DNA of 64,000 nucleotides from a virus (taxonomy: Duplodnaviria; Caudoviricetes), in the IMG/VR virus record IMGVR_UViG_3300005937_000003, positions 17,131 through 81,130 of that record; one strand, 5' to 3'. Under the pieces are notes generated by a model. The model ran no database searches. It was not told where the DNA came from and saw nothing but the letters and a program-made list of their open reading frames with translations. Each line of letters opens with the position of its first letter. The stretch's first letter is position 1. Of this stretch, positions 17,861 through 53,606 are shown piece after piece. The position numbers and the translations under genes are program-made.

Positions 17861-17939
17861 ATTATCGCCCCGTCGCGCCTATCCGTCAACCGATTCGGTG
17901 ACAGATTGTGTTAGATGTTTGTAAACGTTGTGGGTGACA
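17861..17939 (-). promoter_or_regulatory. Promoter A with tandem dyad operators
   Basis: TTGACG-N17-GATAAT; dyads at 17884-17903 and 17920-17939. Confidence 0.75.
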
Positions 17940-17942
17940 GAC

Positions 17943-18317
17943 TCAATTGCTGCGCTCGGCTAGCCGCTCTAGCTCGGCCTTGAAGTGCGCCAGTTCCTCG
18001 TCGGAGGCGTTTTCAAGGTGGTGCAGGACCAGTTCGGTCCTAGCCTCGGGCAGCGCTCGCAGGATCTCGTCCAGCTTGAGGTGGACGGCCGCGTTATCCC
18101 TGAGTTGCGTGTTCTGGATGATGAACACCAGCAGGAAGGTCAGCACGGTCGTGCCCGTGTTGATCACCAGTTGCCAGGTGTCCGAGAAGCCGAACAGCGG
18201 CCCGCTGACGGCCCACACCAGGCACGCCAAGACGCTCAGGATGAAGGCGAGCGGATGGCCCGTCCAGACGCCGATCAGCGTCGCGAAGCGGGCGAAGCGC
18301 TCGCCCCAGGCGCTCAC
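17943..18317 (-). CDS. Low-affinity iron permease family (Fet4-like) protein
   Basis: FSDTWQLVINTGTTVLTFLLVFIIQNTQxRDxxAVHLKLDEILRA signature. Confidence 0.88.
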   Translation of the reverse strand: MSAWGERFARFATLIGVWTGHPLAFILSVLACLVWAVSGPLFGFSDTWQLVINTGTTVLTFLLVFIIQNTQLRDNAAVHLKLDEILRALPEARTELVLHHLENASDEELAHFKAELERLAERSN

Positions 18318-18318
18318 C

Positions 18319-18486
18319 TCACAGCAGGCGTGCTAGGGCAAGCCCGCCGAACATGGCGCACAGCTTGGGGTCCATCTGGTTGGTCAGCCACAGCACCACC
18401 GCCGCGATCAGCACGACGATGGCGATCAGGGTGCCGATGGCGCCGCCATATGGCGCGGTCCACAGCACACGTCGTTCTACAGCCAC
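18319..18486 (-). CDS. Small membrane protein
   Basis: GTG after GGAGGTGGGAG; two hydrophobic segments. Confidence 0.6.
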   Translation of the reverse strand: MAVERRVLWTAPYGGAIGTLIAIVVLIAAVVLWLTNQMDPKLCAMFGGLALARLL

Positions 18487-18502
18487 GTACTCCCACCTCC
18501 CT

Positions 18503-20053
18503 TCACGCCGCGAACGGCGGGACACCCGATTGTTCCTCCTCGCCCTCCTCGGTCGTCACGTCCTGGCCGCCCAGCGGTAGCCCGCCGCCCTGCACGCGCT
18601 CCAGCCAGGCCAGGCTACTCAGCACGCGACGGCGCTCGTCCTCGGTGCCCTCGCTGAGCCAGGGCAGGATGGTCGGCACGAAGTCGCGCAGGAACTCGTT
18701 GGCGCCGTCCAGGCTCACCAGGCCCGCCTGGGTGCCCACCTGAAACGCCTGGAACAGCGTCAGGATGGTCTGCGCCACCGCCTGCTCGTCCTTGGCCGCG
18801 ATCTCGGGCCACGACGGCTCGACCTCGTAGGTCAGCAGCGCGGGCATGTCGAAGCCAGGCGCCTTGGCAGCCATCGCCAGGAACATCTCGTGCGTCTCGA
18901 CGTACGGGTCGGTGGTCATCAGCCGCTTACGCTCGATGGTCTTGACGAACGGTCCCATCTGGCTGTCCACGCTCGCCTTGCTGGAGGCGACGGCCGTGCC
19001 CAGCACGAACTCGGGGATCTGCGCGCTCTGGACGATGCAGTAGAACAGGTACTCCAGCAGGATGCCCACGCCCGCCGTGCCAGGCTCGGCGGTGATGTAG
19101 TTGGCGTCCTCACCCTCGGTCAGCAGGAAGATCTCGTGCCCCTGGAAGTTGACGGGCTGACCTGGCTTCCAGCCCGCGAAGTTGTCGGCCAGGAAGCGGT
19201 TGACGTCCTTGAGGGTGAACTTCACTTTCGGCTTGGCGAACAGGCGGATGCCCTGATTGCCGACCATCATGGTGTCGTGGTACGCCCGCAGCAGCGGCTC
19301 CAGCGGTTCGAGGTCGCTCACACCGAATAGCTGGTTCTCCTCGGGTTCGTTCTTGAAGTGCACGACGGGGATGAAGCCCCAAGGGTTCGGCACCTCGTCG
19401 CCTGGATAGCGCTGGCGGATGTCGGCGGGGGCGCGCTCGTCGGCCTTGAGTTGGTACGTCGCGTCGGTCAGCGTCTCGGTGATCACGTAGCTCGGCTGGG
19501 TGTTCGAGTCGGGCCTGTTGGTCGGGTACACGGGGTGGGTGATGATGAGCGCGTCCCACTCGCCCGTGATGGGGTCGAGGACGGGCGTGCACCACTCGGG
19601 ATGCTCCAGGCGGATGTCGAAGCGCTTCTGCTTGCTGAAGCGGTCGTCCACGTAGTCCAGGCGCAGGAAGACGTCGCCGTCGCGCAGCGTATTGCGGTTG
19701 ACGGTCAGGAAGGTCGAGACGAACTTCTGGTCGAACTCGTTCAGCGCCTCGTCGGCCTCGGGCACCTCGGCCTTGCTCTTGAAGTGCGGCACGCCCACGT
19801 AGCCCGCCGTGAAGTTGATGATCGGCCTGGCGAAGTGCGCGCCCAGCTTGTACTGCGGGATCTGGTTGCGGTACAGCTTGCGCGCCCGCCCGTAGTCCAC
19901 CCGTGAGGTGTCGAAGTTGGACTCGCGGTTGGGCCACCAGCCCGTGCCCGTGATCGAGGCGCCGTCCTGGCGCAGCGGGGCGTACGGATCGGTTTCCCCG
20001 TAGGCGATGCGATTCATCGCTCTGGCCAGCGCTCGTGTCAACGGGTTGGGCAT
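18503..20053 (-). CDS. Portal protein (SPP1 gp6-like)
   Basis: 516 aa directly after TerL; GDVFLRL, WGFIPVVHFKNEP and FGVSDLEPL motifs. Confidence 0.88.
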   Translation of the reverse strand: MPNPLTRALARAMNRIAYGETDPYAPLRQDGASITGTGWWPNRESNFDTSRVDYGRARKLYRNQIPQYKLGAHFARPIINFTAGYVGVPHFKSKAEVPEADEALNEFDQKFVSTFLTVNRNTLRDGDVFLRLDYVDDRFSKQKRFDIRLEHPEWCTPVLDPITGEWDALIITHPVYPTNRPDSNTQPSYVITETLTDATYQLKADERAPADIRQRYPGDEVPNPWGFIPVVHFKNEPEENQLFGVSDLEPLEPLLRAYHDTMMVGNQGIRLFAKPKVKFTLKDVNRFLADNFAGWKPGQPVNFQGHEIFLLTEGEDANYITAEPGTAGVGILLEYLFYCIVQSAQIPEFVLGTAVASSKASVDSQMGPFVKTIERKRLMTTDPYVETHEMFLAMAAKAPGFDMPALLTYEVEPSWPEIAAKDEQAVAQTILTLFQAFQVGTQAGLVSLDGANEFLRDFVPTILPWLSEGTEDERRRVLSSLAWLERVQGGGLPLGGQDVTTEEGEEEQSGVPPFAA

Positions 20054-20074
20054 GGGCGGCTCCTCGGCGCCAGT

Positions 20075-21478
20075 CTACGCGAAGCTGCCCGATACGACCG
20101 CCTCGATGGCCTCACGGCTGCCTGGCGATACCATTGCCCGCAGCGGCCACGATGCCAGCGCGAGTGCAGTCACGGTGTCGTCGTGTCCGCCATCTGGGTG
20201 GTCCACGCGGCTCGACTGGCCATGCTTGACGCGGCGCAGGGCGCGCAATTCGTCGCGCAGCCTGGTGAAGCCCGCAGGTAGCTCGAACTTGCGGTTCTGC
20301 AGCAGCACCTGCAGGTTGGAGAGCAGCGCGTTGCGCGACGTCTGCGAGAAGACGTACGGCTCGGCGCCGACGATCTGCTCGGCCACGCCCTTCTCGGTCG
20401 TCGCGTCGATCAACACGCGGGCGTTGTTGAACTCGGCGCGCAGGGTGTTGACGTCGTCCACCACGCTGCCCTCGCCCGTGTAGGGCTTGCCCCTGTAGTA
20501 CAGCCAGCGGGCGATGCGCACGGGCCAGTAGGTGACGTTGAGCACGACGATGGCGGTGTAGTCCTGCACCTGAGCCAGGTCCACGCCGATGACGTAACGG
20601 TGGCCGTTGCCCGCCTCTAGCTCGGGCGGGTAGTCCTCATCGAACAGGTCGGCCAGCAGCGACCAGGCGAAGACCTGCTCGTCGTCGTCCACGAACTGGG
20701 CCAGGTATTCCACCAGCCAGACGTACTCGGGCACCTCCAGCTTGATGCGCTCGATCTCCTCACGCGGCACGGCCAGGTTGTCGAAGACCGTCGCGTGGAT
20801 CGTGCGGTAGTAGCCCGACGGCTCGCTGTAGATGCGCCCGCTGCCGTCCACCAGCACGCGGTTGTCGCCGTTGGCCAGGTTGTGCAGCGTCTGGAAGTAG
20901 TTCTGGCCGTTGGGTGTCGATTCGAGCTTGATGGCCCCGCCTCGGTCCAGCACCATCGCTCGGATGACCTCGTTGTAGACCTTGTCCTTGATGAAGGCGG
21001 CCTCGGTGACGCACACGCCGTTGGCGCCCTTGCCGCGCAGGTACACCCCGTCGCGAGCCGTTGACCTGGCGTGTAGCTCAGAACCCGTCACCAGCTTCAC
21101 GCTCGGGAAGGGGCTGCGCTTGATCGGCCCGTCGAGCAGCGCCTCCATCATGCCGTTAGGGTGCTGGGCGGCCTGCTCGATCTCGTTGAAGTACAGGCTC
21201 GCCTGGTCGAGGCTCGGGCCTGTGACGTACCACGTGTGGTTGGCGTGGGTGGCCAGCGAGTGGACGGCGTCCACCGTCGTCGTCAGGGTCTTGCCCGACC
21301 GCCGTCCCGCCACCTTGGTCGAGATGGTGCCGCCGATGTTGACCGCGTCCACCTGCCACGGCGACGTCCGCAGATCCTTGCCGAAGAAGACCTTGGCGAA
21401 CTCGCACTTGTCGTGGCGGCAGCGCTGGACCACCTGGGCCAGGCGGGCCATCTGCTCGTGGCGCAGCAGCACGGCCAT
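20075..21478 (-). CDS. terL: Terminase large subunit
   Basis: Walker A VAGRRSGKT; ESTPNG; nuclease GVDLAQVQDYT and HDDTVTALALA. Confidence 0.93.
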   Translation of the reverse strand: MAVLLRHEQMARLAQVVQRCRHDKCEFAKVFFGKDLRTSPWQVDAVNIGGTISTKVAGRRSGKTLTTTVDAVHSLATHANHTWYVTGPSLDQASLYFNEIEQAAQHPNGMMEALLDGPIKRSPFPSVKLVTGSELHARSTARDGVYLRGKGANGVCVTEAAFIKDKVYNEVIRAMVLDRGGAIKLESTPNGQNYFQTLHNLANGDNRVLVDGSGRIYSEPSGYYRTIHATVFDNLAVPREEIERIKLEVPEYVWLVEYLAQFVDDDEQVFAWSLLADLFDEDYPPELEAGNGHRYVIGVDLAQVQDYTAIVVLNVTYWPVRIARWLYYRGKPYTGEGSVVDDVNTLRAEFNNARVLIDATTEKGVAEQIVGAEPYVFSQTSRNALLSNLQVLLQNRKFELPAGFTRLRDELRALRRVKHGQSSRVDHPDGGHDDTVTALALASWPLRAMVSPGSREAIEAVVSGSFA

Positions 21479-21570
21479 CAGTGGCGCGTCAGGATGAACA
21501 GGACCGTGCCCAGCATCATGCCGAAGACGAACAACGCCAGGACGGCGTTGATGGCGCGGTCACGGCTCAC
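21478..21570 (-). CDS. 30-aa membrane peptide
   Basis: GTG SRDRAINAVLALFVFGMMLGTVLFILTRH; overlaps both neighbours (GTGA, TGATG). Confidence 0.55.
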   Translation of the reverse strand: MSRDRAINAVLALFVFGMMLGTVLFILTRH

Positions 21571-21758
21571 CTGCCCAGCAGGCGGCGGATGGCGTAGATC
21601 AGGCCCGCCCAGAAGCCGACGCCGATGAGGACGGCGGACGTCATGCCGCGCATACGCAGCACGAAGTCGGGCGAGGATCGGTCGAGGAAGTCGGGGTCGT
21701 CAGGGTACTCGGGATAGTCAGGCGGCGCGGACACCTGGCCGTCGAGATCTATGGGCAC
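21567..21758 (-). CDS. Small membrane protein
   Basis: Acidic N-terminus, C-terminal TM helix. Confidence 0.55.
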   Translation of the reverse strand: MPIDLDGQVSAPPDYPEYPDDPDFLDRSSPDFVLRMRGMTSAVLIGVGFWAGLIYAIRRLLGR

Positions 21759-22156
21759 GGTTGGACCTCACTGGACGAGGCTGCCCCAGGACGGCGCAGG
21801 ACACGTCTACGGGGGCGCTGAGACGATTGTGGGCGCGTGGCCGACGCGATGGCCAGCCTGACGCTGGCGATGTCTCTGGGGTCTGCGGCGTGGCCAAACG
21901 GCGCATCGTTGGTGTTGTGGGGCGCCGCCACCAGCGGCTCGGCCAGCAGGCGCCAGGCGGTAGACGGCTCGACGCCCGTCTGGGTGAAGTCGATACCGCA
22001 CGAGTCGCACACCATCGGTTCGCCACCCTTGAGCGGGCTGCCGTCGAGATGCTCGCAGCGGGCGGCCATGACCACCTCGTTGACACCAGGCAGGTCGCCC
22101 ACGACCACGAAGGCGGTGCCGTGACACTGCTTGCAGATCACGGCCCAGCGCTGCAT
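21749..22156 (-). CDS. Zn-finger-like protein
   Basis: CKQC and CDSC motifs. Confidence 0.55.
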   Translation of the reverse strand: MQRWAVICKQCHGTAFVVVGDLPGVNEVVMAARCEHLDGSPLKGGEPMVCDSCGIDFTQTGVEPSTAWRLLAEPLVAAPHNTNDAPFGHAADPRDIASVRLAIASATRPQSSQRPRRRVLRRPGAASSSEVQPCP

Positions 22157-22159
22157 GGC

Positions 22160-22363
22160 TCACTCGTCAGGCAGCACAGGGACGAGCGGGTTCCACTGCT
22201 CGGTGACCACCAGGGTGTTGCCCACGGCGGCCTTCTCGATCTTGAGTAGCTTGCCGCAGTCGCACAGCACCGTCGTCGTCTCGCCAGGCATCAGCGCGGC
22301 GCTGTGGTGACGATGGCACGTCGGGCACTGGGCGGACGGGTAAGGCGGTGCCTCCTCGGTCAT
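22160..22363 (-). CDS. Zn-ribbon protein, leaderless
   Basis: CPTC...CDCG; TATCGT 8 nt upstream of the ATG. Confidence 0.6.
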   Translation of the reverse strand: MTEEAPPYPSAQCPTCHRHHSAALMPGETTTVLCDCGKLLKIEKAAVGNTLVVTEQWNPLVPVLPDE

Positions 22364-22382
22364 GGCGCCCTACGATAGCAGC

Positions 22383-22484
22383 ATGTTGGCCCAGGTTGTC
22401 GGCGCGATTTACCCCGCCACGATGCTGCTGCTGTTTATCGGGTTCGCGCTGTATTGCCTCTGGATGTCCTGGCGGGGCAACTAG
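22383..22484 (+). CDS. 33-aa counter-oriented membrane peptide, leaderless
   Basis: MLAQVVGAIYPATMLLLFIGFALYCLWMSWRGN; TACGAT 6 nt upstream. Confidence 0.55.
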   Translation: MLAQVVGAIYPATMLLLFIGFALYCLWMSWRGN

Positions 22485-22672
22485 CTGGGCAGTTCGGGCT
22501 GGATCTCGGCGGGATGTAGCTCGGCGTCCTGCTTGACCAGCGCGACCAGTTCGACGCGGCACCGCTCCAGCAGGTCGTAGTCGTCGTCGTCCTCGTCCAC
22601 GATGTCGGCCAGGTACTCCAGCCAGGCCAGCAGCGCCTGGACCTGCGCGGCGTCGAGTTGCCAGTTGATCAT
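22481..22672 (-). CDS. Small acidic protein
   Basis: MINWQLDAAQVQALLAWLEYL...; ATGA overlap. Confidence 0.55.
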   Translation of the reverse strand: MINWQLDAAQVQALLAWLEYLADIVDEDDDDYDLLERCRVELVALVKQDAELHPAEIQPELPS

Positions 22673-22872
22673 GCCCGTGCTCGCGGATGCCACGCGACTG
22701 GCCACCACCAGTCGGTGTAGCCGCGCCACGGCAGCCACACCTGGCTCCAGGCGTCGGCATCGAGTGCCACCAGCAGGCTGCCCAGCGGCGTGTGCACGTA
22801 CAGGCGATTGGGCGGGCTTGGGTCGATGCTGCGGCACTCGGCGTCGCGGGCGCAGTTGTGCACGCGAATCAC
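22669..22872 (-). CDS. Hypothetical protein
   Basis: GTGA overlap with the TerS-like stop. Confidence 0.45.
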   Translation of the reverse strand: MIRVHNCARDAECRSIDPSPPNRLYVHTPLGSLLVALDADAWSQVWLPWRGYTDWWWPVAWHPRARA

Positions 22873-23678
22873 AGCGCGTCCAGCGCCTCGGCGGCGGCGG
22901 GCAAGGCCATCGGCTCGGGCAGATCCTCGCCCAGCAGCAGCGTCCGCAGCGCGCTCGGCAGGTCGCGCCCCTCGGCGTCGGTGAGCGCCTTCTTTTCGAC
23001 CACCAGGCCCTGCAGCCGCGCCTGGTTCATGATGGCCGTGTTGACCGCCTGCAGCACCTGACCCGCCACGCGACGGTACTGCGCGGCGCCCTTGTCGTCG
23101 TGGTGCACACGTTTGAAGGTCGGGTGCGGTTCGATGCACGAGAAGACTTCCCCGTAGGTCACCCCGGGCTGCCCCAGCGGATCGTTCAGCGACATCTCGG
23201 CGGGCCGATGCTCCTGGCGCCCCGTGCACATCACCCGAACGGGCATGTTGAACAACACCGCCTGGGTGTAGGCCTCGTCCTGGCGCAGTAGCTCCAGGCC
23301 GTTGCGGATGACGCCGTCGAGCTTGCGGATGGCCTCGGCGCGCAGTTGGTCCTGAGTGCGGGCGACGCGCAGCAGCCACAGTTCGTTCAGGCGTGCCCAG
23401 TCCTCGATGACCGTCACGTGGTCCCAGCCCAGCGCCCTGGCCGTCTCATAGGCGCTCATGCCCGCCAGGCGATGCTGCTCGACCACCTCCAGGCGACGCA
23501 TCACCCGAACGTCCTGAGTCCAGTGATTGTTCGCGGGACGATAGTCACGGGGTGGCGTATGGCCGTTGACAATCGCTTCGACGTACGGATCGGGCGTGCC
23601 CCTGCGCCGCTTGGCGTTGCGCCTGGCATCGGCGGGCCAGCGCTTGGGCGTGCCGTCGGGATTCTTACCGCGAACCAA
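22869..23678 (-). CDS. Terminase small subunit-like HTH protein
   Basis: HTH-like GMSAYETARALGWDHVTVIEDW; C-terminal AIMNQARLQGLVVEKKALTDAEG; upstream of TerL. Confidence 0.6.
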   Translation of the reverse strand: MVRGKNPDGTPKRWPADARRNAKRRRGTPDPYVEAIVNGHTPPRDYRPANNHWTQDVRVMRRLEVVEQHRLAGMSAYETARALGWDHVTVIEDWARLNELWLLRVARTQDQLRAEAIRKLDGVIRNGLELLRQDEAYTQAVLFNMPVRVMCTGRQEHRPAEMSLNDPLGQPGVTYGEVFSCIEPHPTFKRVHHDDKGAAQYRRVAGQVLQAVNTAIMNQARLQGLVVEKKALTDAEGRDLPSALRTLLLGEDLPEPMALPAAAEALDAL

Positions 23679-24964: not shown

Positions 24965-24984
24965 TGTCACCGATCTGGGTTACG
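24965..24984. promoter_or_regulatory. Dyad operator overlapping the -10 of the MazG-like gene
   Basis: TGTCACC-GATCTG-GGTTACG; GACAAT 6 nt before the ATG on the minus strand. Confidence 0.55.
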
Positions 24985-30840: not shown

Positions 30841-30883
30841 AATATAAGCGCCAAGCTCAGGTCTGTCAACCATTTCGGTGTCA
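30841..30883 (-). promoter_or_regulatory. Promoter B with dyad operator
   Basis: TTGACA-N17-TATATT; dyad 30864-30883. Confidence 0.8.
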
Positions 30884-35233: not shown

Positions 35234-35253
35234 TGTAACCCAGTCGGGTGTCA
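35234..35253. promoter_or_regulatory. Dyad operator overlapping the -10 of the NADAR gene
   Basis: TGTAACC-CAGTCG-GGTGTCA; TACACT 8 nt before the ATG on the minus strand. Confidence 0.6.
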
Positions 35254-38644: not shown

Positions 38645-38971
38645 TCAGGCCGTGGCGGCCGCCAGTTCGCGATGGCGCAGGCGCTCCTCCGCAAGCGTGC
38701 GGTCGCGGCTGCCGACGCTCTTGTGGCGTGGTTCGATGGTGCCCGCAGGCACCCCCAATAGCCGCTCGCACCTGGCCCACAGGCCAGGCTGGGGCGGACG
38801 GTACAGCGGATTGGTCGGGTTCAGCCGCATGCGGTACAGGTAGTTGCGACTGATGCCCAGTTGCTCGGGCAGCCACTCGGTCTGCCTGCCCTGCTGCATC
38901 AAAATCTCCTCCAGTCGGCGCCCTTGAGGCGACCAATCGGCTGGCGGCGGGGAAACTCGTGATCGTGGCAT
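38645..38971 (-). CDS. HTH (Cro/XRE-like) transcriptional regulator, leaderless
   Basis: RLEEILMQQGRQTEWLPEQLGISRNYLYRM; TACTAT 7 nt before the ATG. Confidence 0.7.
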   Translation of the reverse strand: MPRSRVSPPPADWSPQGRRLEEILMQQGRQTEWLPEQLGISRNYLYRMRLNPTNPLYRPPQPGLWARCERLLGVPAGTIEPRHKSVGSRDRTLAEERLRHRELAAATA

Positions 38972-38980: not shown

Positions 38981-39000
38981 AGTAACCGATCAGGGTGACA
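38981..39000. promoter_or_regulatory. Dyad operator overlapping the promoter of the HTH gene
   Basis: AGTAACC-GATCAG-GGTGACA. Confidence 0.65.
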
Positions 39001-39019: not shown

Positions 39020-39048
39020 AAAAAGCCCCGACCCGTAGGGATCGGGGC
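39020..39048 (-). terminator. Intrinsic terminator
   Basis: GCCCCGATCC-CTAC-GGGTCGGGGC followed by TTTTT. Confidence 0.8.
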
Positions 39049-40640: not shown

Positions 40641-40660
40641 AGTACACGATCTGGGTGACA
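40641..40660. promoter_or_regulatory. Dyad operator overlapping a TACTAT -10 box
   Basis: AGTACAC-GATCTG-GGTGACA. Confidence 0.55.
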
Positions 40661-42901: not shown

Positions 42902-43654
42902 TTAGCCGCAGACTAGCGCCCCGTCGGGGGCGACGCGATGAGTATAGCTTGGCGCACGTCCTGACGTCAACCGATTCGGAGACACGTCTTCCAGCAGCGC
43001 GACGGGGCGAGGGACCAAGATGGCCCTCGCTCGCTCTGCATCAGCCTCGGTCAGGCCCGCCGTCGCATCGGTCTGCACCAGATACGGCAGCAGGCTGCCC
43101 ATGCGGTCGTGGTCATCGAGGATGACGAACGTCTCGACGCGCTCGCCCAGGTAGTCGAGCACCGCCTGGATCTCGATGCCGCGCTCGCGGGCGTCCCATT
43201 CGGGCGTCTCGCCCAGCCACGGCGTGCGGCCGATCAGGCGGCCGTGGAAGCCCGCGCTGGCCAGGTCGGATCTCAGCGCCTCGACGCCGATCCAGCGCCA
43301 CCAGCTTGACACCACGAGCACGGCGCCCGTGTCGCGGGCAAGCCTGTCCAGGCGCTCGACCAGCGGTCGCAGCAGGTTGTAGGCGCCAGCGCGGTGCTGG
43401 TTGAGCACGCCGTCGAAGTCGCAGAAGATGACGCGCAGGCCGTGGCCCTCGGCGCCGTCCAGGCGCACCTGGCGGTCGCACGTGCGGGTCGGGATGGTGC
43501 GCACGAAGGCCTGCTGCTGGGCCTGCTTGCGGGCGCGCTTCGCGGTCTTCTTGAGACGGCGGCGCTCCTTCTTGCTGAGTGCCTGCGGCGCCACGTCGGC
43601 CCAGTCGCTGAAGCTCGGCTGCCAGGTGACACCCAGGTCGTGGTCGTACTTCAC
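42902..43654 (-). CDS. HAD phosphatase (HAD_SAK_2, RNA-repair-like)
   Basis: IFCDFDGVLN, VVSSWWR, RGIEI, FVILDD, GLT. Confidence 0.85.
   Translation of the reverse strand: MKYDHDLGVTWQPSFSDWADVAPQALSKKERRRLKKTAKRARKQAQQQAFVRTIPTRTCDRQVRLDGAEGHGLRVIFCDFDGVLNQHRAGAYNLLRPLVERLDRLARDTGAVLVVSSWWRWIGVEALRSDLASAGFHGRLIGRTPWLGETPEWDARERGIEIQAVLDYLGERVETFVILDDHDRMGSLLPYLVQTDATAGLTEADAERARAILVPRPVALLEDVSPNRLTSGRAPSYTHRVAPDGALVCG
42941..42984 (-). promoter_or_regulatory. Promoter C with dyad operator
   Basis: TTGACG-N18-TATACT; dyad 42965-42984; lies inside the 3' end of the HAD gene. Confidence 0.65.
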
Positions 43655-43896: not shown

Positions 43897-43939
43897 AATA
43901 TACGCGCCAAGCTCAGCGGTGTCAACAATTTCGGTGACA
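43897..43939 (-). promoter_or_regulatory. Promoter D with dyad operator
   Basis: TTGACA-N17-TATATT; dyad 43920-43939. Confidence 0.82.
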
Positions 43940-44970: not shown

Positions 44971-45005
44971 GAGAGTGTCCAGGCCCTCCATCGGCCAGTC
45001 ACGAG

Positions 45006-45049
45006 AAGATACACCCCGTCATCTGCGCTTGTCAACCAATTCGGTGTCA
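45006..45049 (-). promoter_or_regulatory. Promoter E with dyad operator
   Basis: TTGACA-N18-TATCTT; dyad 45030-45049. Confidence 0.75.
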
Positions 45050-45839: not shown

Positions 45840-46015
45840 GCCCCGCCTCCAGGCAGGCGACGCCACGAGCCGTAGACCCGCAGCGCCGCGATTGCAGTAA
45901 CCAGGCCAGCCAGCAGCGCGGCGGGGATGACCCCGAACGCTGCTGTCAGGCCGAACACGCCCACCCCGAGAAGGGTGATGATGCCGAACAGGGTGAGTTG
46001 CAGGGAGCGGTTCAT
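45836..46015 (-). CDS. Small membrane protein (59 aa)
   Basis: MNRSLQLTLFGIITLLGVGVFGLTAAFGVIPAALLAGLV...; overlaps both neighbours; not in the track. Confidence 0.6.
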   Translation of the reverse strand: MNRSLQLTLFGIITLLGVGVFGLTAAFGVIPAALLAGLVTAIAALRVYGSWRRLPGGGA

Positions 46016-47109
46016 GACCGCTCCTCGCGCACCAGGCTGATGATCTCGGCGCCCTCGGGCGTCTGCGCCAGCGCCGCCTGGGCGGCGTCGATGTAGCTCG
46101 CGGCCTGGACGCGCATGTGCACCTCGGTGCGCACCGTCACGTGCCAGGTGTGCCCGCCAGGCGTGCCGTACATCTTGGCCGCGATGGCACCAGCGACAGG
46201 ATCTCCCACAGGCGCAGGCTCGGGCGTGGGTTCGGCCACGATGGCCTCTGGGGCCTCTACGGGCGCCCTGGCAGCCTCTACGCTCGCCTCGATGGCTGCC
46301 AGGGCCTCCTGCGCGGCCAGGGCCTCCTGGCGCTTCTTGTGGTAGTAGGCGCGAGACTTGGCGCGCTTCTCCTCGTCGGTCATCTTGGGGATGCCGTGCC
46401 TGGCCATGATGGCCACCAGCACCGTGGACTTGACGTGGTAGTCGCGCAGGACGTCTTGGAAGCTGCCCGCCCGGGCGCGCATCAGTTCAACGATCTCGTC
46501 TTCCTGCGGGTGCAGCGGCCCATCGGGGATCGGCTCGCTCGGCACGGGCACACCCTCCTCCACGACTGGGACGGCGGCGGGCAAGACCGCTTCGATCTCG
46601 GCCTGCTCGCGCTTGGCTCGCGCCTCGGCATCCTTCTGGCGCACCGTCTCGTACGGCACGCCGAACTTCTCGATGATCTGCGCCAGGACGCGGCCCTGGA
46701 CGTGGTAGTCGCGCTGGACGTCGTGAAACTTGGCGCCATCGCGGATGGCCTGCGCAATCGCCTCCTCCTCGGCGTGCAGGCGCCCGCTGGCAGCCAGGCT
46801 GGCCTGGTCGGCCAGCACTTGATCAACTGCGGTAGTCACGGGATCGGGGGTTCCTTCCTTTCCGTTCTGTGTTGCGCGCATCCAATCGCGCTTGGTGTTG
46901 GGGCGGTAGTTGCGAAGAAACTCGGCGTAGTCCAGGCGGTTCTTGAGGCCTCCCTTGCGGTGACGCGGACCCGTGCCCGCGCCCTCGCGAATGGTTCGGT
47001 AGTAGACGGCGGTCGGGGTGACGCGACGCACCTCGACCAGCGCGCCTGGGTGGTTGCCGCGCACACTCACCCACTGAGTGGACGGTACGACTCGTAGGCC
47101 TTCTGACAT
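46012..47109 (-). CDS. Hypothetical protein with two internal HTH-like repeats
   Basis: FHDVQRDYHVQGRVLAQII and FQDVLRDYHVKSTVLVAIM repeated. Confidence 0.65.
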   Translation of the reverse strand: MSEGLRVVPSTQWVSVRGNHPGALVEVRRVTPTAVYYRTIREGAGTGPRHRKGGLKNRLDYAEFLRNYRPNTKRDWMRATQNGKEGTPDPVTTAVDQVLADQASLAASGRLHAEEEAIAQAIRDGAKFHDVQRDYHVQGRVLAQIIEKFGVPYETVRQKDAEARAKREQAEIEAVLPAAVPVVEEGVPVPSEPIPDGPLHPQEDEIVELMRARAGSFQDVLRDYHVKSTVLVAIMARHGIPKMTDEEKRAKSRAYYHKKRQEALAAQEALAAIEASVEAARAPVEAPEAIVAEPTPEPAPVGDPVAGAIAAKMYGTPGGHTWHVTVRTEVHMRVQAASYIDAAQAALAQTPEGAEIISLVREERS

Positions 47110-47935: not shown

Positions 47936-47965
47936 GATCTCGGCCCTCCATCGGCCGACAGGATG

Positions 47966-48008
47966 AATATACGCGCCAAGCTCCCCGTTGTCAACATATT
48001 CGGTGACA
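47966..48008 (-). promoter_or_regulatory. Promoter F with dyad operator
   Basis: TTGACA-N17-TATATT; dyad 47989-48008. Confidence 0.82.
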
Positions 48009-48031
48009 TTGGTGGCCATCAAAAGTAGCCC

Positions 48032-48655
48032 TTACAAAACTGTGACGGGGCGCCTGGCGCGCTTGACGGTGAGCGACACTGGCGGGAGTCCCTGCTGGTG
48101 CCGCAGCCAGACCTGCAGCGCCTGGGTGAGCGTGACGGCCTCGATGACCACGCTGGTGGTGAGGGTGCCGTCCTGGCCGTGGGCCTCGATGCGCCACAGC
48201 TTCTTGGGGGCGGGCAGCGGCTGCAGGTCGCGCAGTTTGAGCGGCGGGCCGACCTTCACGCGCTTGGCGGCGTAGCAGGTCCGCAGCAGCGTCTGAGGGG
48301 CCTCGCCCATGACGTGCCCGACCAGTTCGAGCATGCGCCTGGCGAAGTCCGCGCCGTGCGCCTCCTCGCTCGACGGCCCCAGCGCGTGGGCTAGCTCGTG
48401 GCAGATGGTGATCTCGTTCCTGGCCCACTTGGGCAGCGTGATCCAGCCGTTGGACGAACCTGCCGCCTTCGAGCGCCCGCGCCCGTCGCGTACCTCGATC
48501 TTGCGGTTGCCGAATCGGCGCCGCGTCCAGGCCTCGGCCAGCAGGTGGTCCACGAACGCCTGGACGGCGGGCACGCCCTCGAACTTTGCGCCGTCGCTGA
48601 GCGCCGCCTCGGCTGCGTAGACCTTCGAGCGCTGCGCGTCGCGAGGACGGCTCAC
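48032..48655 (-). CDS. HExxH metallohydrolase (Rv0185/TIGR04338-like)
   Basis: RDAQRSKVYAAE...ICHELAH...HGADF. Confidence 0.78.
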   Translation of the reverse strand: MSRPRDAQRSKVYAAEAALSDGAKFEGVPAVQAFVDHLLAEAWTRRRFGNRKIEVRDGRGRSKAAGSSNGWITLPKWARNEITICHELAHALGPSSEEAHGADFARRMLELVGHVMGEAPQTLLRTCYAAKRVKVGPPLKLRDLQPLPAPKKLWRIEAHGQDGTLTTSVVIEAVTLTQALQVWLRHQQGLPPVSLTVKRARRPVTVL

Positions 48656-49113
48656 GGCTCGATCCTCACGAACGTGCCGCCCGCCTCGTGCCACCGTCCG
48701 TCATCGGCATCCCAGATCCTGTGCAGGACGAGCGCCTCGTCGTACCAGTAATCCACGAGCGTGCCCGACTGGATGCGGTGTGTCATCTGCGCCGCCGCGA
48801 CGATCTCGGCTTCTGCAAGCGCGGCGTTCTCCTCGGGTGTTGGTTCTGGCCGCAGCGGGCCGCTGAGGATGATCGTCGGCGCGCCAGATAGCGTCGGCGC
48901 ACCTGGGTTCGTGCGCGGCTGAGCCAGGATTGCTGCCAACGCCGCGTCGGCTTTGGCCTTCTCAGCGGCTGCCACGGCGGCCTTCTCAGCGTCGTGGCGG
49001 GCCAGGATCTCGGCCATCGTCTCGGCGCGAGCGGGCTGTGGCGCCACCAGCGCTACGGCCGCAGCGGCGCCAGTCACGGCGGCCGCCAGGCGGATCGTTT
49101 GAAGTAGCTTCAT
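48652..49113 (-). CDS. Secreted or lipoprotein-like hypothetical protein
   Basis: Signal peptide MKLLQTIRLAAAVTGAAAAVALVAPQPARA; AAGGAG RBS. Confidence 0.6.
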   Translation of the reverse strand: MKLLQTIRLAAAVTGAAAAVALVAPQPARAETMAEILARHDAEKAAVAAAEKAKADAALAAILAQPRTNPGAPTLSGAPTIILSGPLRPEPTPEENAALAEAEIVAAAQMTHRIQSGTLVDYWYDEALVLHRIWDADDGRWHEAGGTFVRIEP

Positions 49114-49253
49114 CGGTTCTTCTCCTTGGGTTGCTGGCGGATCGAGCGACCCGCCGAGTAGTGCGAGTTGCACATCGTCCAGCCGCGCCTGGCTGGGCGC
49201 GGGCACTGGCCGTCCGCGAAGCGCGGATGCTTGAAGTCGCAGCGGCGGGACAT
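49110..49253 (-). CDS. Small Cys/His protein
   Basis: MSRRCDFKH...QCPRPA...MCNSH; overlaps both neighbours. Confidence 0.5.
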   Translation of the reverse strand: MSRRCDFKHPRFADGQCPRPARRGWTMCNSHYSAGRSIRQQPKEKNR

Positions 49254-50344
49254 CAGTTGCCCGCCGCGACGTCGTTAGCCAGGTCGGCCGCAGCCGCCAG
49301 GTCGTCGGCCCAGTCGCTGGCCTGGATGGGGCGCAGGACCAGGCCCGCGCCCGTGATGACCGCACCGTCCGTGTCGTGCTGCAGGTCGTAGTCGGCCTTG
49401 ATGGCCTGGGCGGCCACGGGGGCCGCCTGGAAGGCCTTCAGCGCGTTCTTGGCGGCTCGGAAGGCCTCCCAGGCCTCGTCCTCGTCCTCCTCGCTGGCGG
49501 CTGCGAAAGCGGCCTTGGCGGCGTTGACGGCGGCGATCAGGTCGTCCTCGGTCGGGCCAGCAGGCGCCGCAGGCGTCTCGACCACCTCGGGGGTGGGGGC
49601 CTCAGCGAGGCCCTCCTTGGCCAGCAGCACCTTGGCGGGTACTGCCTTGGCGCCCCACGGCAGGTCGTGCTTCTTGGCGCACGTCGGGCCGTAGCCGACC
49701 GTCAAGCTCTCGACCGTGTCGAGTTCCAGGCCGCAGAAGCCGCACTCGCCGCCCTCCATCGCGTAGGCGAGGATGTAGACGAGGTCGTCGTCGGCGTTCT
49801 GGAGCGTCTCCAGGGCGTCCAGCACGCGGTGGGCGAGGATCGTGTTGACCTTCTTGAAGATGTTGACCGTGCCCTGCGGGTCGGCCTTGCCAACCGTCGT
49901 CCAGCCCTCGGCCGTCCGCGTCGAGATCTTGCGCGTGCCCTTGGGGGCGTCGGTCCACATCGTAGGGATCGAGAGGCGAACGGCGATGCTCGTGCCGTCA
50001 GCGGCCACCACGCGGAAGCGGGCCGTGCGCACCTGGCTGATGTTGGCGCCAGCGACTGGCAGCGTCTCGGCCTTGGGCGCCGCAGGCTTGGCCTCGGCGC
50101 GGACCACGTTCAGGACACCCTTGGCCTGGCCGACGCTCAGGCCCTTCTTCGAGCCAGCGCGGACCTTCATGTCGGCCATGAAGTTGATGGCCCAGTGGCC
50201 AGCCTTGGGCGCGACCCAGCTTAGTGCGACTGTGCGAGCGGCGGACTCCAGGCTCGGAGTGAGATCCTCGATCTCGAACTTGCGGCCAGCGATCTGATTG
50301 TCAACGATGAAGGCCTCGGCGGCCTGGCGGTCAATGAATTGCAT
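49253..50344 (-). CDS. DUF6011-like Zn-finger protein, leaderless
   Basis: CGFCGLELDTVESLTVGYGPTCAK; ATG 6 nt after the -10 of promoter G. Confidence 0.75.
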   Translation of the reverse strand: MQFIDRQAAEAFIVDNQIAGRKFEIEDLTPSLESAARTVALSWVAPKAGHWAINFMADMKVRAGSKKGLSVGQAKGVLNVVRAEAKPAAPKAETLPVAGANISQVRTARFRVVAADGTSIAVRLSIPTMWTDAPKGTRKISTRTAEGWTTVGKADPQGTVNIFKKVNTILAHRVLDALETLQNADDDLVYILAYAMEGGECGFCGLELDTVESLTVGYGPTCAKKHDLPWGAKAVPAKVLLAKEGLAEAPTPEVVETPAAPAGPTEDDLIAAVNAAKAAFAAASEEDEDEAWEAFRAAKNALKAFQAAPVAAQAIKADYDLQHDTDGAVITGAGLVLRPIQASDWADDLAAAADLANDVAAGN

Positions 50345-50350
50345 GGGATG

Positions 50351-50429
50351 AATATATGCGCCAAGCGTATTGTTGTCAACCTTTTCGGTGACAGGGAGTG
50401 TTAGATCTTTGTAAACGTTCACGGTGACA
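50351..50429 (-). promoter_or_regulatory. Promoter G with tandem dyad operators
   Basis: TTGACA-N17-TATATT; dyads 50374-50393 and 50410-50429. Confidence 0.82.
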
Positions 50430-50431
50430 GC

Positions 50432-51250
50432 CTAGCGCTGCCAGTAGGGGGTCGAGGCCGTCTTGCGGATCTGCCGTGCAGGCGGCGTCCACGAGCGGAT
50501 CGTGTCGCGACGCGGGCGGCCATACAACTGGTCGAGGAACTGACGCCTGGCCATCGTGCGGCCCGTGCGTTCCCAGCGGTTGGCGTAGTCCTCCTCGCGC
50601 TGCTGGGTGCTGCACCACGTCGAGCAGAAGCGGTCGCCGTGCACCAGCACCTGGCCACACCAGATGCAGTTCCAGGCGGGCAGGCGACGGCCGACCTCGA
50701 AGGTGAAGTCCTCCTCGGCCATCGCGTCGGCCTGCTCCTCGGCGTCGAGCGCGGCGCGCATCGCCTTGGTGCCCTTGGCGCTTTTGATGACGGTGCCGTC
50801 GGGCCGCGTGTACGTGACGGGCGTGGCGCCCAGTTCGAGCAGCCGTTCGGTGCGCGTTTTGACACCAGTTTCTGGCGTTTTTGGTATTGACGGCGCGGCC
50901 AGCGGGCCTGTAGGCAGCGGCAGCGGCTCGATGATCTCGTCCGCGACGGGGCGGCCAGGCTTGCCAGGCGTCCTGGGCGGCAGCGGCCCTTGCGGCAGAC
51001 GCGGGCGACGGCCTCGACCGCGCTTGCGGCCTTGCCCGACGAGCCAGGCGCGGCAGTCGTCGCAGCCCGCCTCGGCCATGATCTGGTAGCTCGTGGCAGC
51101 CGTCGTGGACCAGTACCACTCGGCGCCGCACGCCGTGAGCGCCCGCCCCGACGGCCACATGGTGTCGGTCGGCAGCCACACGTGCCAGCGGCCCCAGCGG
51201 TCGTCGGTGACCCACACGGGCACCTTGGGCTGGCGTGGCAAGCCCGTCAT
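50432..51250 (-). CDS. Hypothetical protein with Cys motifs
   Basis: GAGGAGG RBS; CDDC, CIWC...CSTWC. Confidence 0.6.
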   Translation of the reverse strand: MTGLPRQPKVPVWVTDDRWGRWHVWLPTDTMWPSGRALTACGAEWYWSTTAATSYQIMAEAGCDDCRAWLVGQGRKRGRGRRPRLPQGPLPPRTPGKPGRPVADEIIEPLPLPTGPLAAPSIPKTPETGVKTRTERLLELGATPVTYTRPDGTVIKSAKGTKAMRAALDAEEQADAMAEEDFTFEVGRRLPAWNCIWCGQVLVHGDRFCSTWCSTQQREEDYANRWERTGRTMARRQFLDQLYGRPRRDTIRSWTPPARQIRKTASTPYWQR

Positions 51251-51278
51251 GATGTGCAGCACGCTGTCCACGACGCTG

Positions 51279-51692
51279 TCAGCGACGGAGTCCACGGCCA
51301 CCATCCTCCTCGATCTGCTGGCGCCCCAGGCGAGCGTCCTCCTGTGTCCAGGCGCGCCCGTAGCGCTTCTGGCGGCACGACAGCGCGGCCAGCACGACCA
51401 TGTCGGTGGTCTGCAGCACGAAGTCCTGATCGGTGGGGCTGAGCGCGTTCCAGGCCAGGTCGAAGTCGCGCTTGAGCGCCTCGCGACGGCGGGCCAGGAT
51501 CGGCTGCTGGGTGTCGGCCAGCACATCGTGCTTGCAGCGCGAGCACAGGCCCCACTCCTCGTCGTCGGCGTAATGGTGCGGCTCGTCACCGACCACCACC
51601 GTGAAGTGGTTGGTCCTGATCACCCAGGTCAGGTCGGTGCCAAGCTCGCACAGGTCGCAGGCAAGTCCAGTTCTCACGGTTCTCTCCTTCAC
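51279..51692 (-). CDS. Zn-finger-like protein
   Basis: CDLC and CSRC; GTGA overlap. Confidence 0.6.
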   Translation of the reverse strand: MKERTVRTGLACDLCELGTDLTWVIRTNHFTVVVGDEPHHYADDEEWGLCSRCKHDVLADTQQPILARRREALKRDFDLAWNALSPTDQDFVLQTTDMVVLAALSCRQKRYGRAWTQEDARLGRQQIEEDGGRGLRR

Positions 51693-52456
51693 AGCCACGC
51701 CAGCATCTGGCGGCCGATGTACTGGCAGTACGCGGGCGGGATGGCCTCGGCCAGTTCGTGGCGGTTCTTGGCCCACGGCATGCCCATCGCGAAGCGCCAG
51801 GCGTTCAGGCTCGAATTGCCCTTGGCGTTGTCGCCGCCGTGGCCCGCCACGGTGATGTAGTCGCCACCTCGGATGGTGCCCGTGTGCGACTGGTGCTTGA
51901 GCGGGCTGACCATCTCGCCCACCTCGAAGGTGCGGTGGCGCAGCAGCGGTAGGCCGAACTGGGTGCCGCACAGGGTGATCGGCCGCTGGACGGGCAAGAC
52001 CATCTGCTCGGGCGTGCCGTCGAACTCGCGACCCAGGTCGGTGCCGTAGGTGTTGACCACCAGCAGCGGGTGGCGGTAGTCGCGCTCGGCGCGTGGCACG
52101 TTCTCCATGACCAGCGGCATGCCGTACTCGGAGCAGATCTCGCGAGCGACGGGGATCAGGTCGGTGCGATACCAGTCCTCGGCCTTGGCCACCTTGGCCC
52201 AGGTCGGCGTGGCGATGCTGTAGCCCTGGCACGGGAAGCTGGCGTGCACCGCGTCGAACTCGTGGATGTGCTCGGCCAGGTACTCGATGGCGTCGGCCTG
52301 CACGAAGGTGGTGCCGCCGTAGTTCGGCTGGGGCTTGAGATCGACGCCCACGACGTCCCAGCCAGCGCGCATGTAGCCGACTGAGGCGCCGCCGACGCCG
52401 CAGCACAGATCGAGCAGGCGCGGCCTGGTGCTGAAGTCGTAGGTGACTTGATTCAT
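51689..52456 (-). CDS. DNA cytosine-C5 methyltransferase (short phage type)
   Basis: LDLCCGVGG (motif I), SFPCQ (IV), MENV (VI), CGTQFGL..RHR (VIII). Confidence 0.85.
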   Translation of the reverse strand: MNQVTYDFSTRPRLLDLCCGVGGASVGYMRAGWDVVGVDLKPQPNYGGTTFVQADAIEYLAEHIHEFDAVHASFPCQGYSIATPTWAKVAKAEDWYRTDLIPVAREICSEYGMPLVMENVPRAERDYRHPLLVVNTYGTDLGREFDGTPEQMVLPVQRPITLCGTQFGLPLLRHRTFEVGEMVSPLKHQSHTGTIRGGDYITVAGHGGDNAKGNSSLNAWRFAMGMPWAKNRHELAEAIPPAYCQYIGRQMLAWL

Positions 52457-52465
52457 GGTGCCAAC

Positions 52466-52508
52466 AATATATGCGCCAAGCGTATTGTTGTCAACTATTT
52501 CGGTGACA
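52466..52508 (-). promoter_or_regulatory. Promoter H with dyad operator
   Basis: TTGACA-N17-TATATT; dyad 52489-52508; 30 bp identical to promoter G. Confidence 0.82.
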
Positions 52509-52623
52509 AGGTGGGCGTCACAATCGCGTAACGCGGCACACGTCCTGCGGCCACAGATGTGTAGGTCTGCACCTGCCCAGGCGGGAGCACGCCTACTAGC
52601 CTGACACCCTGGAGGGACGCCCC

Positions 52624-52833
52624 ATGACCACGTTTGCTGATCTGCGCAAGACCAGCCCACAGATTCAGGACCAGTACCAGCGGTTCGTGACCCAGCAGAA
52701 CGGCGGGCGCAGCCAGCCCGACTGGAATGCCTTCCGCCAGTACCAGAAGTCACAGGGTCAGCCCGATCCTGGCGCCGACGAGCCGACCGACCTGCAGCAG
52801 ATCCACCAGCAGGCGTCGAGCAGCCAGCGCTAA
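52624..52833 (+). CDS. Counter-oriented Gln-rich protein (69 aa)
   Basis: GGAGGG RBS; fills an otherwise empty gap; followed by a terminator hairpin. Confidence 0.7.
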   Translation: MTTFADLRKTSPQIQDQYQRFVTQQNGGRSQPDWNAFRQYQKSQGQPDPGADEPTDLQQIHQQASSSQR

Positions 52834-52834
52834 C

Positions 52835-52858
52835 AAAAAAGGCCCCCGTCGGGGGCCT
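52835..52858 (-). terminator. Terminator between convergent genes
   Basis: AGGCCCCC-GTC-GGGGGCCT; six T on the minus strand. Confidence 0.75.
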
Positions 52859-53042
52859 ACTCGACGCACTTCCATGTGCGCTGATCTTCGCCTGGTGGGA
52901 GCCAGGTTTTATAGCTCGGGCCGCTGCACTTGACCTGGCACGTCAGGTTGCCGAAGCCGTCGAGCAGGGTGCCGCAGGCCCCGCACGCCTCGCGGTGCAT
53001 GTGGCCAGGCTGGCCGTGGATGCGGCACCAGTCGCGCTTCAC
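52857..53042 (-). CDS. Cys-rich small protein
   Basis: CRIHG, CGAC; GTGA overlap. Confidence 0.55.
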   Translation of the reverse strand: MKRDWCRIHGQPGHMHREACGACGTLLDGFGNLTCQVKCSGPSYKTWLPPGEDQRTWKCVE

Positions 53043-53314
53043 GCCGTGCCCCCGTCGTTCGAGCCACCGATGATGTGGCCCGCCGTGTCGGCGCGCCCGA
53101 TCTTCCACAGCACGTAGGTGATGCCGTCAAGCTCGCGGCTGGACCAGGCGGGGCCGTGGTCGCAGATGGCGTTCTTGCCATTCGGGCAGAAGCCGCGCTG
53201 GTGCTTGCGGCCGATGCTGGTGAGTTGCTCACCGATCAGCATGCGCAGGCGGGCGCGACGCTGCTGCGGGTCCATCGGCGCCAGGCGCACGCCCAGGTAG
53301 CTGGTGGGGGTCAT
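53039..53314 (-). CDS. Hypothetical protein
   Basis: ATGA overlap. Confidence 0.55.
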   Translation of the reverse strand: MTPTSYLGVRLAPMDPQQRRARLRMLIGEQLTSIGRKHQRGFCPNGKNAICDHGPAWSSRELDGITYVLWKIGRADTAGHIIGGSNDGGTA

Positions 53315-53532
53315 CGCCGTACCTCGGCCTGCGCCGCCTCGATGGTGCGCAGCACGATTGTCGCGTAGTGGTCCATCGCCGCAGCCGAGTCGTGGCGCTT
53401 GATCGACTTCTGCAGCCGCACCAGCACCTGGCTCACATCGGGCTTGCCGCAGACGTCGCAGTACAGCACGCCAGAGGCGTCCATGAAGCCCTCGGAGCCG
53501 CACTCGCCATTGCAGATGTTCTCGAATCCCAT
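53311..53532 (-). CDS. Zn-finger small protein
   Basis: CNGEC...CDVC; GGAGGG hairpin leader. Confidence 0.65.
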   Translation of the reverse strand: MGFENICNGECGSEGFMDASGVLYCDVCGKPDVSQVLVRLQKSIKRHDSAAAMDHYATIVLRTIEAAQAEVRR

Positions 53533-53562
53533 GCTGAAGGCCCTCCATCGGCCGACGCATGG

Positions 53563-53606
53563 AATATACGCGTCAAGCTACCCTGCTGTCAACCTTTTCG
53601 GTGACA
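53563..53606 (-). promoter_or_regulatory. Promoter I with dyad operator; first promoter of the early region
   Basis: TTGACA-N18-TATATT; dyad 53587-53606. Confidence 0.8.

Follow-up and report, generated by a model that had tools for sequence, protein, structure and literature searches.

Nine near-identical copies of a promoter fused to an inverted repeat, here called the promoter-operator, were found on the minus strand of the 64,000-nucleotide stretch of viral DNA analysed in this study (the window, bases 17131-81130 of the 81,130-bp IMG/VR virus record IMGVR_UViG_3300005937_000003; GC content 67.7%, CheckV 100%). With a probability of roughly 0.55, we read these copies as early promoters that are used by the sigma-A of the host and are jointly shut off by P0001, a small protein encoded by the phage itself, and we suppose that the copies also recombine with one another. 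This reading sets out from features of the sequence, their conservation, a protein fold and a recombination junction that are established here. From them we infer promoter activity, the identity of the binding protein and the sign of regulation.

Nine promoter-operators and further dyads

The motif reads TG(T/A)C(A/T)CCGAA-N3-GTTGAC(A/G)-N17/18-TATAYT. When the window was searched with the pattern TGWCWCCGAANNNGTTGACR, nine matches were obtained with 0 mismatches to the degenerate pattern, starting at 17884 (promoter A), 30864 (B), 42965 (C), 43920 (D), 45030 (E), 47989 (F), 50374 (G), 52489 (H) and 53587 (I), against 0.03 expected by chance; a count of nine was reached in 0 of 100 shuffles. 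The other 17 kb of the 81,130-bp record contain no copy, and a scan with a position weight matrix for weaker copies found none. An earlier note on this DNA had listed the same nine minus-strand promoters, their hexamers and N17/18 spacers, including the GATAAT of promoter A, as well as a run of exactly 30 identical bp shared by G and H (GTTGACAACAATACGCTTGGCGCATATATT), and all of this was reproduced.

Promoters C, E and I have a spacer of 18 nt, and the other six have one of 17 nt. At this spacing of 17-18 bp, seven of the nine promoters match the sigma-70/sigma-A consensus hexamers at 10-11 of 12 positions, promoters A (TTGACG/GATAAT) and B (TTGACA/TATATT) lying outside the region that was scored. 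The -10 box occupies -12 to -7, the -35 box -35 to -30 and the left arm of the dyad -49 to -43; in this arrangement, which we call class 1, the centre of the dyad is at about -39.5 and its promoter-proximal arm is the -35 hexamer. The dyad is imperfect, with arms TGTCACC and GTTGACA that are complementary at 6 of 7 positions. The -35 box does lie within the right arm, as had been proposed, but the promoters do not carry the perfect palindrome TGTCACC-N6-GGTGACA that was proposed along with it; that sequence occurs a single time, at 6097-6116, and not in a promoter. Start codons stand 6-9 nt behind the -10 box at promoters A, B, D, G and H. This would give leaderless or near-leaderless mRNAs and is in indirect agreement with transcripts beginning about 7 nt after the -10 box.

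Protein searches gave the metagenomic relatives G001 (56.9 kb), G002 (70.2 kb), G004 (18.8 kb) and G003 (structural genes only), and the genome under study is labelled G000. Early regions of the relatives are collinear with that of G000, with protein identities of 40-85%, and the motif stands at orthologous positions in G001, G002 and G004, upstream of the methylase, DUF6011, 177-aa, 309-aa, DUF932 and 332-aa genes. Over 23 sites in five genomes, the GTCACC of the left arm is 80-99% conserved, equal to the GTTGAC of the -35 box, and the G preceding TTGACA is >90% conserved, though it is not needed by sigma. Moreover, the arm is present at all seven strict TTGACR-N17/18-TATAYT sites of the window and, within two mismatches, at 16 of 17 near-consensus promoters on both strands of the five genomes. 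The upstream arm is thus kept in relatives, and the reading of the earlier note passes this check. A search of 2.9 million viral contigs for the exact motif, with its 17 specified bases, returned 24 single, scattered matches, which apart from the relative G001 are consistent with chance, and megablast of the early region against cultured phages gave no match. As far as sequence comparison can tell, the conserved promoter-operator regulon is real.

Dyads within two mismatches of the perfect palindrome number 14, while 0.28 are expected. Two second dyads (O2), TGTCACC-N6-GTTTACA, lie on the minus strand exactly 36 bp upstream of the promoter dyads (O1) of A (17920..17939) and G (50410..50429), as had been pointed out before; no -10 box follows the O2 of A. 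The upstream modules of A and G are identical at 29 of 36 positions, and this duplication of the O2 module is peculiar to G000. Beyond class 1 there are five further dyads, starting at 6097, 24965, 35234, 38981 and 40641. The perfect palindrome at 6097..6116 (minus) precedes the GTG of a conserved 63-aa gene by 4 nt, and it is present in G001 and absent in G002 and G003. The other four overlap a -10 box (TACTAT, TACACT or GACAAT), have their centre at about -19.5 and form class 2; three of the four lie 6-8 nt before a leaderless ATG. All are on the minus strand: CGTAACC-N6-GGTGACA (24965..24984) stands before a leaderless 113-aa gene, TGACACC-N6-GGTTACA (35234..35253) lies over the -10 box before a leaderless 193-aa gene, TGTCACC-N6-GGTTACT (38981..39000) covers the -10 box TACTAT of a helix-turn-helix gene, and TGTCACC-N6-GTGTACT (40641..40660) covers another TACTAT. 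The ATG after the last of these does not share the reading frame of the 107-aa gene that follows, and may start a short open reading frame (ORF) only or lie within a 5′ leader. In G004, the orthologue of the 113-aa gene has a class-1 promoter in place of the class-2 dyad.

The arm is therefore coupled to the promoter and yet is also found without one, at the O2 sites of A and G and at 6097, and this is the pattern predicted for a protein-binding site. With five more dyads beyond class 1, the regulon is broader than 'early'. Beside the palindrome at 6097, the 63-aa gene (MRLKIISDGT..., 5901-6092, minus) was missed by a gene caller based on GC content at third codon positions (GC3). It is directly downstream of an Rpf-type lysin gene and a small hydrophobic ORF, which may together form a lysis cassette.

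A candidate regulator and rival explanations

The helix-turn-helix gene under the class-2 dyad at 38981..39000 (gene 38645..38971, minus) is leaderless and encodes P0001, a protein of 108 aa with a predicted five-helix fold of the XRE type, which is our candidate regulator. The gene is alone between unrelated ORFs and a strong intrinsic terminator (39025..39048, minus; 10-bp stem and T5) that is predicted to insulate it from upstream transcription. Its promoter has a single dyad, and no families were found for the neighbouring genes. In the AlphaFold2 model, the core has a predicted local distance difference test score of ~90, and the top fold matches in PDB are all XRE-type helix-turn-helix proteins (C.BclI, C.AhdI, SinR, CapH and Aca1) at root-mean-square deviations of 1.8-2.6 A, with C.BclI and C.AhdI at 1.8-1.9 A. 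The Pfam family HTH_31 was recognised in 25 of 30 relatives from a profile search. The P0001 family is rare, with 53 representatives among 1.84 billion proteins, and the promoter of the regulator, TGTCA(C/A)C-N3-ATCGGTTACTAT-N7-ATG, is kept with its dyad at all 10 loci of close homologues, in the 4 phage genomes examined and at 6 metagenome loci, two of the latter being near-identical.

Each of two homologues of P0001 (40-48% identity), encoded on unrelated short contigs, has a perfect 7-6-7 palindrome at its promoter, with the -35 box as the right arm. One reads TGTCAAT-N6-ATTGACA, followed by N17, TAGTAT, N6 and ATG; the other reads AGTCAAG-N6-CTTGACG, followed by N17 and TAAGGT. In these half-sites the outer core GTCA is retained, and the change of the two inner bases goes with a change of the recognition helix (SRNYLYRMR versus SANYLHRIL). 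Of the evidence that ties the protein family to this type of dyad, the palindromes at the promoters of such distant homologues are the strongest. The close members of the family that were examined (alignment A1) share an alanine-rich C-terminal tail, mostly AATA but also, for instance, VATA, AASA or ATPA, which follows a disordered basic stretch and might serve as a tag for degradation or interaction. As the leaderless start of the family is usually overlooked by gene callers, these report 84-87 aa in place of ~108.

Scans of about 80 ORFs with Pfam and PHROGs identified no regulator directly. A phage sigma factor was also sought, with no Sigma70_r2 match in the genome, and a search for a T7-type or single-subunit polymerase, which had no positive control, gave no PF00940 match. 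The sole sigma-like trace is a weak Sigma70_r4 match at 46612-46707. As neither a sigma factor nor a polymerase of its own was found, the phage probably depends on host RNA polymerase. An ORF of 352-365 aa at 46012-47109 (minus) has a weak sigma-70 region-4-like motif (E 0.0015), and together with the following 59-aa ORF it is an insertion within unit F that is specific to G000. The genome was searched for a lysogeny module as well, and no integrase, resolvase or ParB_N match was found; a reading as CI-type immunity was dropped for this reason. The 'ParB-like' neighbours of the earlier note gained no support from the PF02195 search.

According to our model, the housekeeping sigma factor of the host (sigma-70/sigma-A type) would read nine strong promoters that head non-structural units, each fused to an operator with the 7-6-7 dyad TGTCACC-N6-G(T/G)TGACA. 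The T at the second position of the proximal arm would be a compromise between the needs of sigma (TTGACA) and the ideal half-site (GGTGACA). P0001 would bind all dyads as a dimer and compete with sigma region 4 at class-1 sites and with region 2 at class-2 sites, and in a Cro-like manner it would switch off the whole pre-late programme jointly and limit its own synthesis. Copies of the common ~50-bp unit start would then recombine, and promoter-led cassettes would be moved or replaced, with new genes coming under the same control. Because the promoters are near-consensus, repression is likelier than activation, and the occurrence of the same ~50-bp sequence at every unit start suggests that copies recombine. 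One regulator for the whole early regulon had been proposed before; this idea now has a candidate, the XRE-fold protein with a dyad at its own promoter, though 'early' was too narrow a word in view of the five additional dyads.

Several points weigh against this model. The link between protein and sites is one of association only, P0001 alone has no significant Pfam match (E 0.63), and many ORFans near its gene are without an assigned fold. The centres of the half-sites are 13 bp apart, which is wider than in most XRE dimers, and the O1-O2 distance of 36 bp does not make integral helical turns. Class II activators, too, classically bind at sites centred near -39.5, and late-gene transcription is unaccounted for if all promoters found are repressed. 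As to recombination, only one clean cassette junction was found, and the remaining indels are located within units and not at the repeats.

The dyad-binding protein might instead be an activator, or a dual activator-repressor, at class-1 sites, where it would touch sigma region 4 from about -40 as lambda CI does at OR2 or as the controller (C) proteins of restriction-modification systems do. Its action as a repressor would then be confined to class 2, with its dyads over the -10 box. The dyad centre near the class II position and the distal second dyad at promoters A and G would both suit such a protein, and the best structural matches of P0001 include C.BclI, C.AhdI and C.Esp1396I. C proteins also have leaderless genes and paired distal and proximal sites, with activation from the distal one (PMC2275141). 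However, XRE folds are too similar for matches to C proteins to be specific, promoters with 10-11 of 12 consensus positions and optimal spacing should not need an activator, and with the -35 hexamer as proximal arm the protein and sigma region 4 would contend for the same bases. The position close to that of class II activators and the distal O2 sites leave some room for a dual role of the kind played by C proteins or lambda CI; we regard activation at class-1 sites as rather unlikely. We also think it unlikely that a host factor (a global regulator or a protein associated with RNA polymerase) recognises the arm or dyad, the phage having copied a promoter-operator type of its host and the helix-turn-helix gene being merely a member of the regulon. 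The regulators of the host are beyond check, since the host can be placed only as high-GC Terrabacteria, and binding by P0001 is a prediction; yet the distant homologues on unrelated contigs have 7-6-7 palindromes of their own with half-sites that change with the recognition helix, and the exact motif has only single, scattered matches among the viral contigs.

Most early ORFs have no family assignment, and the binding protein might be sought among them, with P0001 as a mere target: a small unassigned ORF, the 365-aa ORF to which the weak region-4-like motif belongs, or the replication initiator, in which a weak HTH_3 match was seen. We consider this quite unlikely, as G001 and G002 keep the sites but are without the 365-aa ORF, an initiator-type protein would hardly be a global regulator, and only P0001 unites conservation in all relatives, a dyad at its own promoter and the palindromes of its homologues. 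A further explanation is that the symmetry serves nucleic-acid structure, in the form of terminator or promoter hairpins like those of the promoter-early stem-loop (PeSL) elements of T4-like phages, mainly for insulation and recombination. Promoter E does lie within a stable stem-loop (-34 kcal/mol, z -3.05) that is followed by a U-rich tract, and the recombination junction falls at the repeat. However, E is the only promoter that beats its shuffles; the other eight copies fold no better than shuffled sequence (z -1.3 to +1.3), and for these a hairpin or terminator reading of the dyad was rejected. In addition, the dyad alone makes a stem of only 5-6 bp, and stand-alone copies and copies over the -10 box suit an operator rather than a terminator, which makes this explanation highly improbable.

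Probable cassette exchange at the repeats

Relatives show cassette polymorphism at the repeat, as the earlier note had anticipated. In the slot between the 309-aa and HAD genes, G000 has promoter D and the 78-aa ORF, G001 has a dyad and a Nudix gene, and G002 has neither. The dyads in this slot are identical at 20 of 20 positions between G000 and G001 (position 6838 of G001). Upstream of the dyad the two genomes can be aligned as orthologues, and this alignment is lost immediately after the -35 box. From the dyad onward, the promoter-Nudix unit of G001 aligns with the promoter A-Nudix unit of G000, which is located between portal and MuF. Homology switches exactly at the dyad and -35 box, which indicates that the breakpoint is the repeat itself.

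Promoter modules are also swapped at positions G and B. In G000 an H-type promoter stands before a leaderless DUF6011 gene, and in G001 this gene has a hairpin leader behind an I/F-type promoter. The spacer of promoter B in G000 is of the D type and differs from those of its orthologues. For H, G, F and B, identity at unconstrained positions is 0.8-0.9 to the closest paralogue within G000, which for B is D, versus 0.2-0.7 to orthologues. Such homogenisation of promoter copies within a genome would support a shuffling role like that of PeSL. G000, G001 and G002 do not have the same genes between their promoters, and most of the downstream genes are without family. With DNA identities of 65-85%, the relatives are too diverged for a statistical test of junctions.

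The leader mentioned above is a 15-nt hairpin, GGCC-GATGGAG-GGCC, with a Shine-Dalgarno sequence in its loop. It is identical behind E, F and I (44982-44996, 47942-47956 and 53539-53553, minus), with 0 such occurrences expected by chance. Promoters of G001 and G002 are followed by it as well, in some cases with another orthologue behind it, and this suggests that promoter and leader move as one module. Moreover, the membrane-protein gene directly upstream of promoter A (17943-18317, minus) has a relative in G004 (17754-18143, 75% identity) at a quite different place; the displacement suggests that the accessory block between portal and MuF was assembled from mobile pieces.

We tentatively suggest, as a possibility that we would not yet back, that the ~50-bp promoter-operator is a portable regulatory cassette, in which homologous recombination between copies would move, replace and duplicate units, as with the PeSL elements of T4-like phages. 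Since the repeat includes the operator of the phage's timing regulator, captured genes would join its switch at once. If true, this would be a plug-in route for accessory genes (Nudix, methylases, ADP-ribose enzymes) in little-known phages of high-GC soil bacteria. The present data offer a testable case of modular gene exchange at promoter repeats beyond T4-like phages.

Gene layout and known systems

Nearly all genes in the window are carried by the minus strand, and in the reading direction of this strand the first block contains baseplate and tail-fibre genes (64000-53817). Promoter-operator I (53563..53606; this and the following promoter coordinates are on the minus strand) is the first promoter past the tail-fibre genes, with the hairpin leader behind it. 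After it comes a 10.7-kb stretch of mostly unassigned ORFs, in which each of the seven promoters from I down to C opens a unit; the assigned genes of this stretch are C5 methylase, DUF6011, HAD_SAK_2 and DUF932. H (52466..52508) has the C5 DNA methylase downstream; G (50351..50393) has a leaderless ATG 6 nt after its -10 box and the DUF6011 protein downstream; F (47966..48008) heads a five-gene unit; and E (45006..45049) combines a TGACACC arm with N18 and TATCTT. D (43897..43939) is followed by the leaderless 78-aa ORF (43887-43651) and the HAD_SAK_2 gene (43654-42902). Frame-specific GC3 divides the long '325-aa' ORF at this place into these two genes, the second of 250 aa with a GTG start at 43654 and a 4-nt overlap. 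Seven copies do cut 42.9-53.6 kb into units of 1-5 genes, as described previously, but unit D holds two genes, not one. C (42941..42984; TGTCTCC arm, TTGACG, N18, TATACT) sits within the 3′ end of the HAD_SAK_2 gene, is orthologous in four genomes and is predicted to drive the DUF932 gene.

Next in the minus direction is the block for recombination and replication (Erf-like, initiator, DnaB), and then promoter B (30841..30883), followed by methyltransferase, large terminase and portal. The left arm of B is TGACACC, the first 3 nt of which are the TGA stop codon of the upstream gene, and a near-leaderless 332-aa gene is downstream. Promoter A (17861..17903; dyad 17884-17903, TTGACG, N17, GATAAT) lies inside the structural module, with a leaderless ATG 7 nt after the -10 box, and is predicted to drive the Nudix gene (17827-17153) and tRNA-Cys downstream. 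A 2621-aa MuF fusion and capsid genes come after this block. Also downstream of promoter A, a 240-aa ORF (15769-16491, minus) has a weak match to the IrrE/ImmA-type Peptidase_M78 (E 0.004, below cut-off). Proteases of the IrrE/ImmA type cleave XRE repressors in other elements, and by analogy this ORF might target the candidate regulator.

Further sequence elements accompany the promoters. A 9-bp box, GCTTGRCGC, is found immediately upstream of the -10 box in seven of the nine (30848, 42947, 43904, 47973, 50358, 52473 and 53570); it has 14 copies in the window against 3.5 expected, and it is inverted (GCGCCAAGC) in promoter C and its three orthologues. This box could be a site for a second factor or a mere sign of shared descent. 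A C-rich box, (C)GCCCCGT, precedes the dyad by 7-43 nt at promoters C, D, E, F and I (43008, 43948, 45066, 48051 and 53613, minus) and also occurs at several promoters of G001 and G002. In A and E the spacer is taken up by its complement, GACGGGGYG. A stem of GCCCCGT and ACGGGGC enclosing the promoters was considered and rejected, as pairing is possible only at E. Between the 61-aa gene and promoter H, a 69-aa glutamine-rich ORF lies on the plus strand (52624-52833), with a GGAGGG ribosome site and a coding-like GC3 of 0.84; it is absent from this position in G002. A strong hairpin adjoining it (52840-52858) is predicted to terminate minus-strand transcripts.

The capsid protein is 57-60% identical to proteins of Alicyclobacillus prophages, and the Rpf-type lysin is actinobacterial in appearance; the host is left placed no closer than high-GC Terrabacteria. 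Our results give a regulatory map of promoters, operator, candidate regulator and units for a phage lineage without a cultured member, and the regulator comes from a rare helix-turn-helix family that Pfam does not recognise directly. The promoter-operator and its small regulator could be used as a compact switchable expression part in bacteria of the high-GC Gram-positive type.

In phage lambda, Cro and CI are autoregulated dimeric helix-turn-helix proteins that bind dyad operators overlapping -35 or -10 boxes, in two operator clusters at one immunity region. The present system resembles it in its candidate helix-turn-helix protein, its promoter-overlapping dyads and its predicted autoregulation. 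Unlike in lambda, every early unit has a copy of one and the same type of operator, which occurs in two registers, and no lysogeny module is visible.

Controller proteins of the C.AhdI type are small lambda-repressor-like helix-turn-helix proteins with leaderless genes, palindromic sites at or upstream of the -35 box, and autoregulation (PMC2275141). P0001 shares with them the fold, the leaderless gene, the placement of sites and the dyad at its own promoter, from which autoregulation is predicted. However, C proteins control one operon beside a restriction gene, with their own gene upstream of that for the endonuclease and co-transcribed with it, and activate a weak promoter that has two adjacent C-boxes, whereas here about 14 units have promoters of consensus strength, the regulator has no adjacent nuclease partner, and its promoter has a single dyad. 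The C1 protein of phage P1 acts on 22 asymmetric 17-bp operators (PMC8546580). As in P1, one regulator would serve many sites throughout the genome in separate transcription units; in contrast to the asymmetric sites of this temperate plasmid prophage, the sites here have dyad symmetry, and the searches for integrase, resolvase and ParB gave no match. The stoperators of Cluster A mycobacteriophages, bound by L5 gp71, are 20-30 copies of one repressor site, one of which lies in the early lytic promoter; they are asymmetric sites of 13-14 bp that are bound by a monomer, lie mostly outside promoters, are oriented with transcription and block elongation (PMC6550527). About 16 copies of one site are likewise spread over the genome of G000, but these are symmetric 20-bp dyads, all but one of them in or just upstream of a promoter.

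PeSL elements of T4-like phages combine a G/C stem-loop terminator with an AT-rich upstream region (PMC2839356, PMC4122927), and the earlier note had drawn an analogy to them. The behaviour is indeed similar: many consensus sigma-70 early promoters stand ahead of ORFans in a plastic region, with some copies inside the structural module, and recombination between copies would move or replace promoter-led cassettes, as is suggested here by one clean junction exactly at the repeat. Membership in PeSL does not follow, since only one of the nine copies has a significant stem-loop. Moreover, there is no AT-rich tract upstream of the -35 box, where the GAAAWW centre of the dyad is followed by the GC-rich arm GTCACC, and phage and host belong to lineages unrelated to the T4-like phages. 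The conserved extra element here is a GC-rich dyad of the kind bound by proteins, whereas the definition of PeSL contains neither operator nor regulator. The promoter-operator regulon belongs, as a variant, to a well-known type of control circuit in phages, and this instance of it is new.

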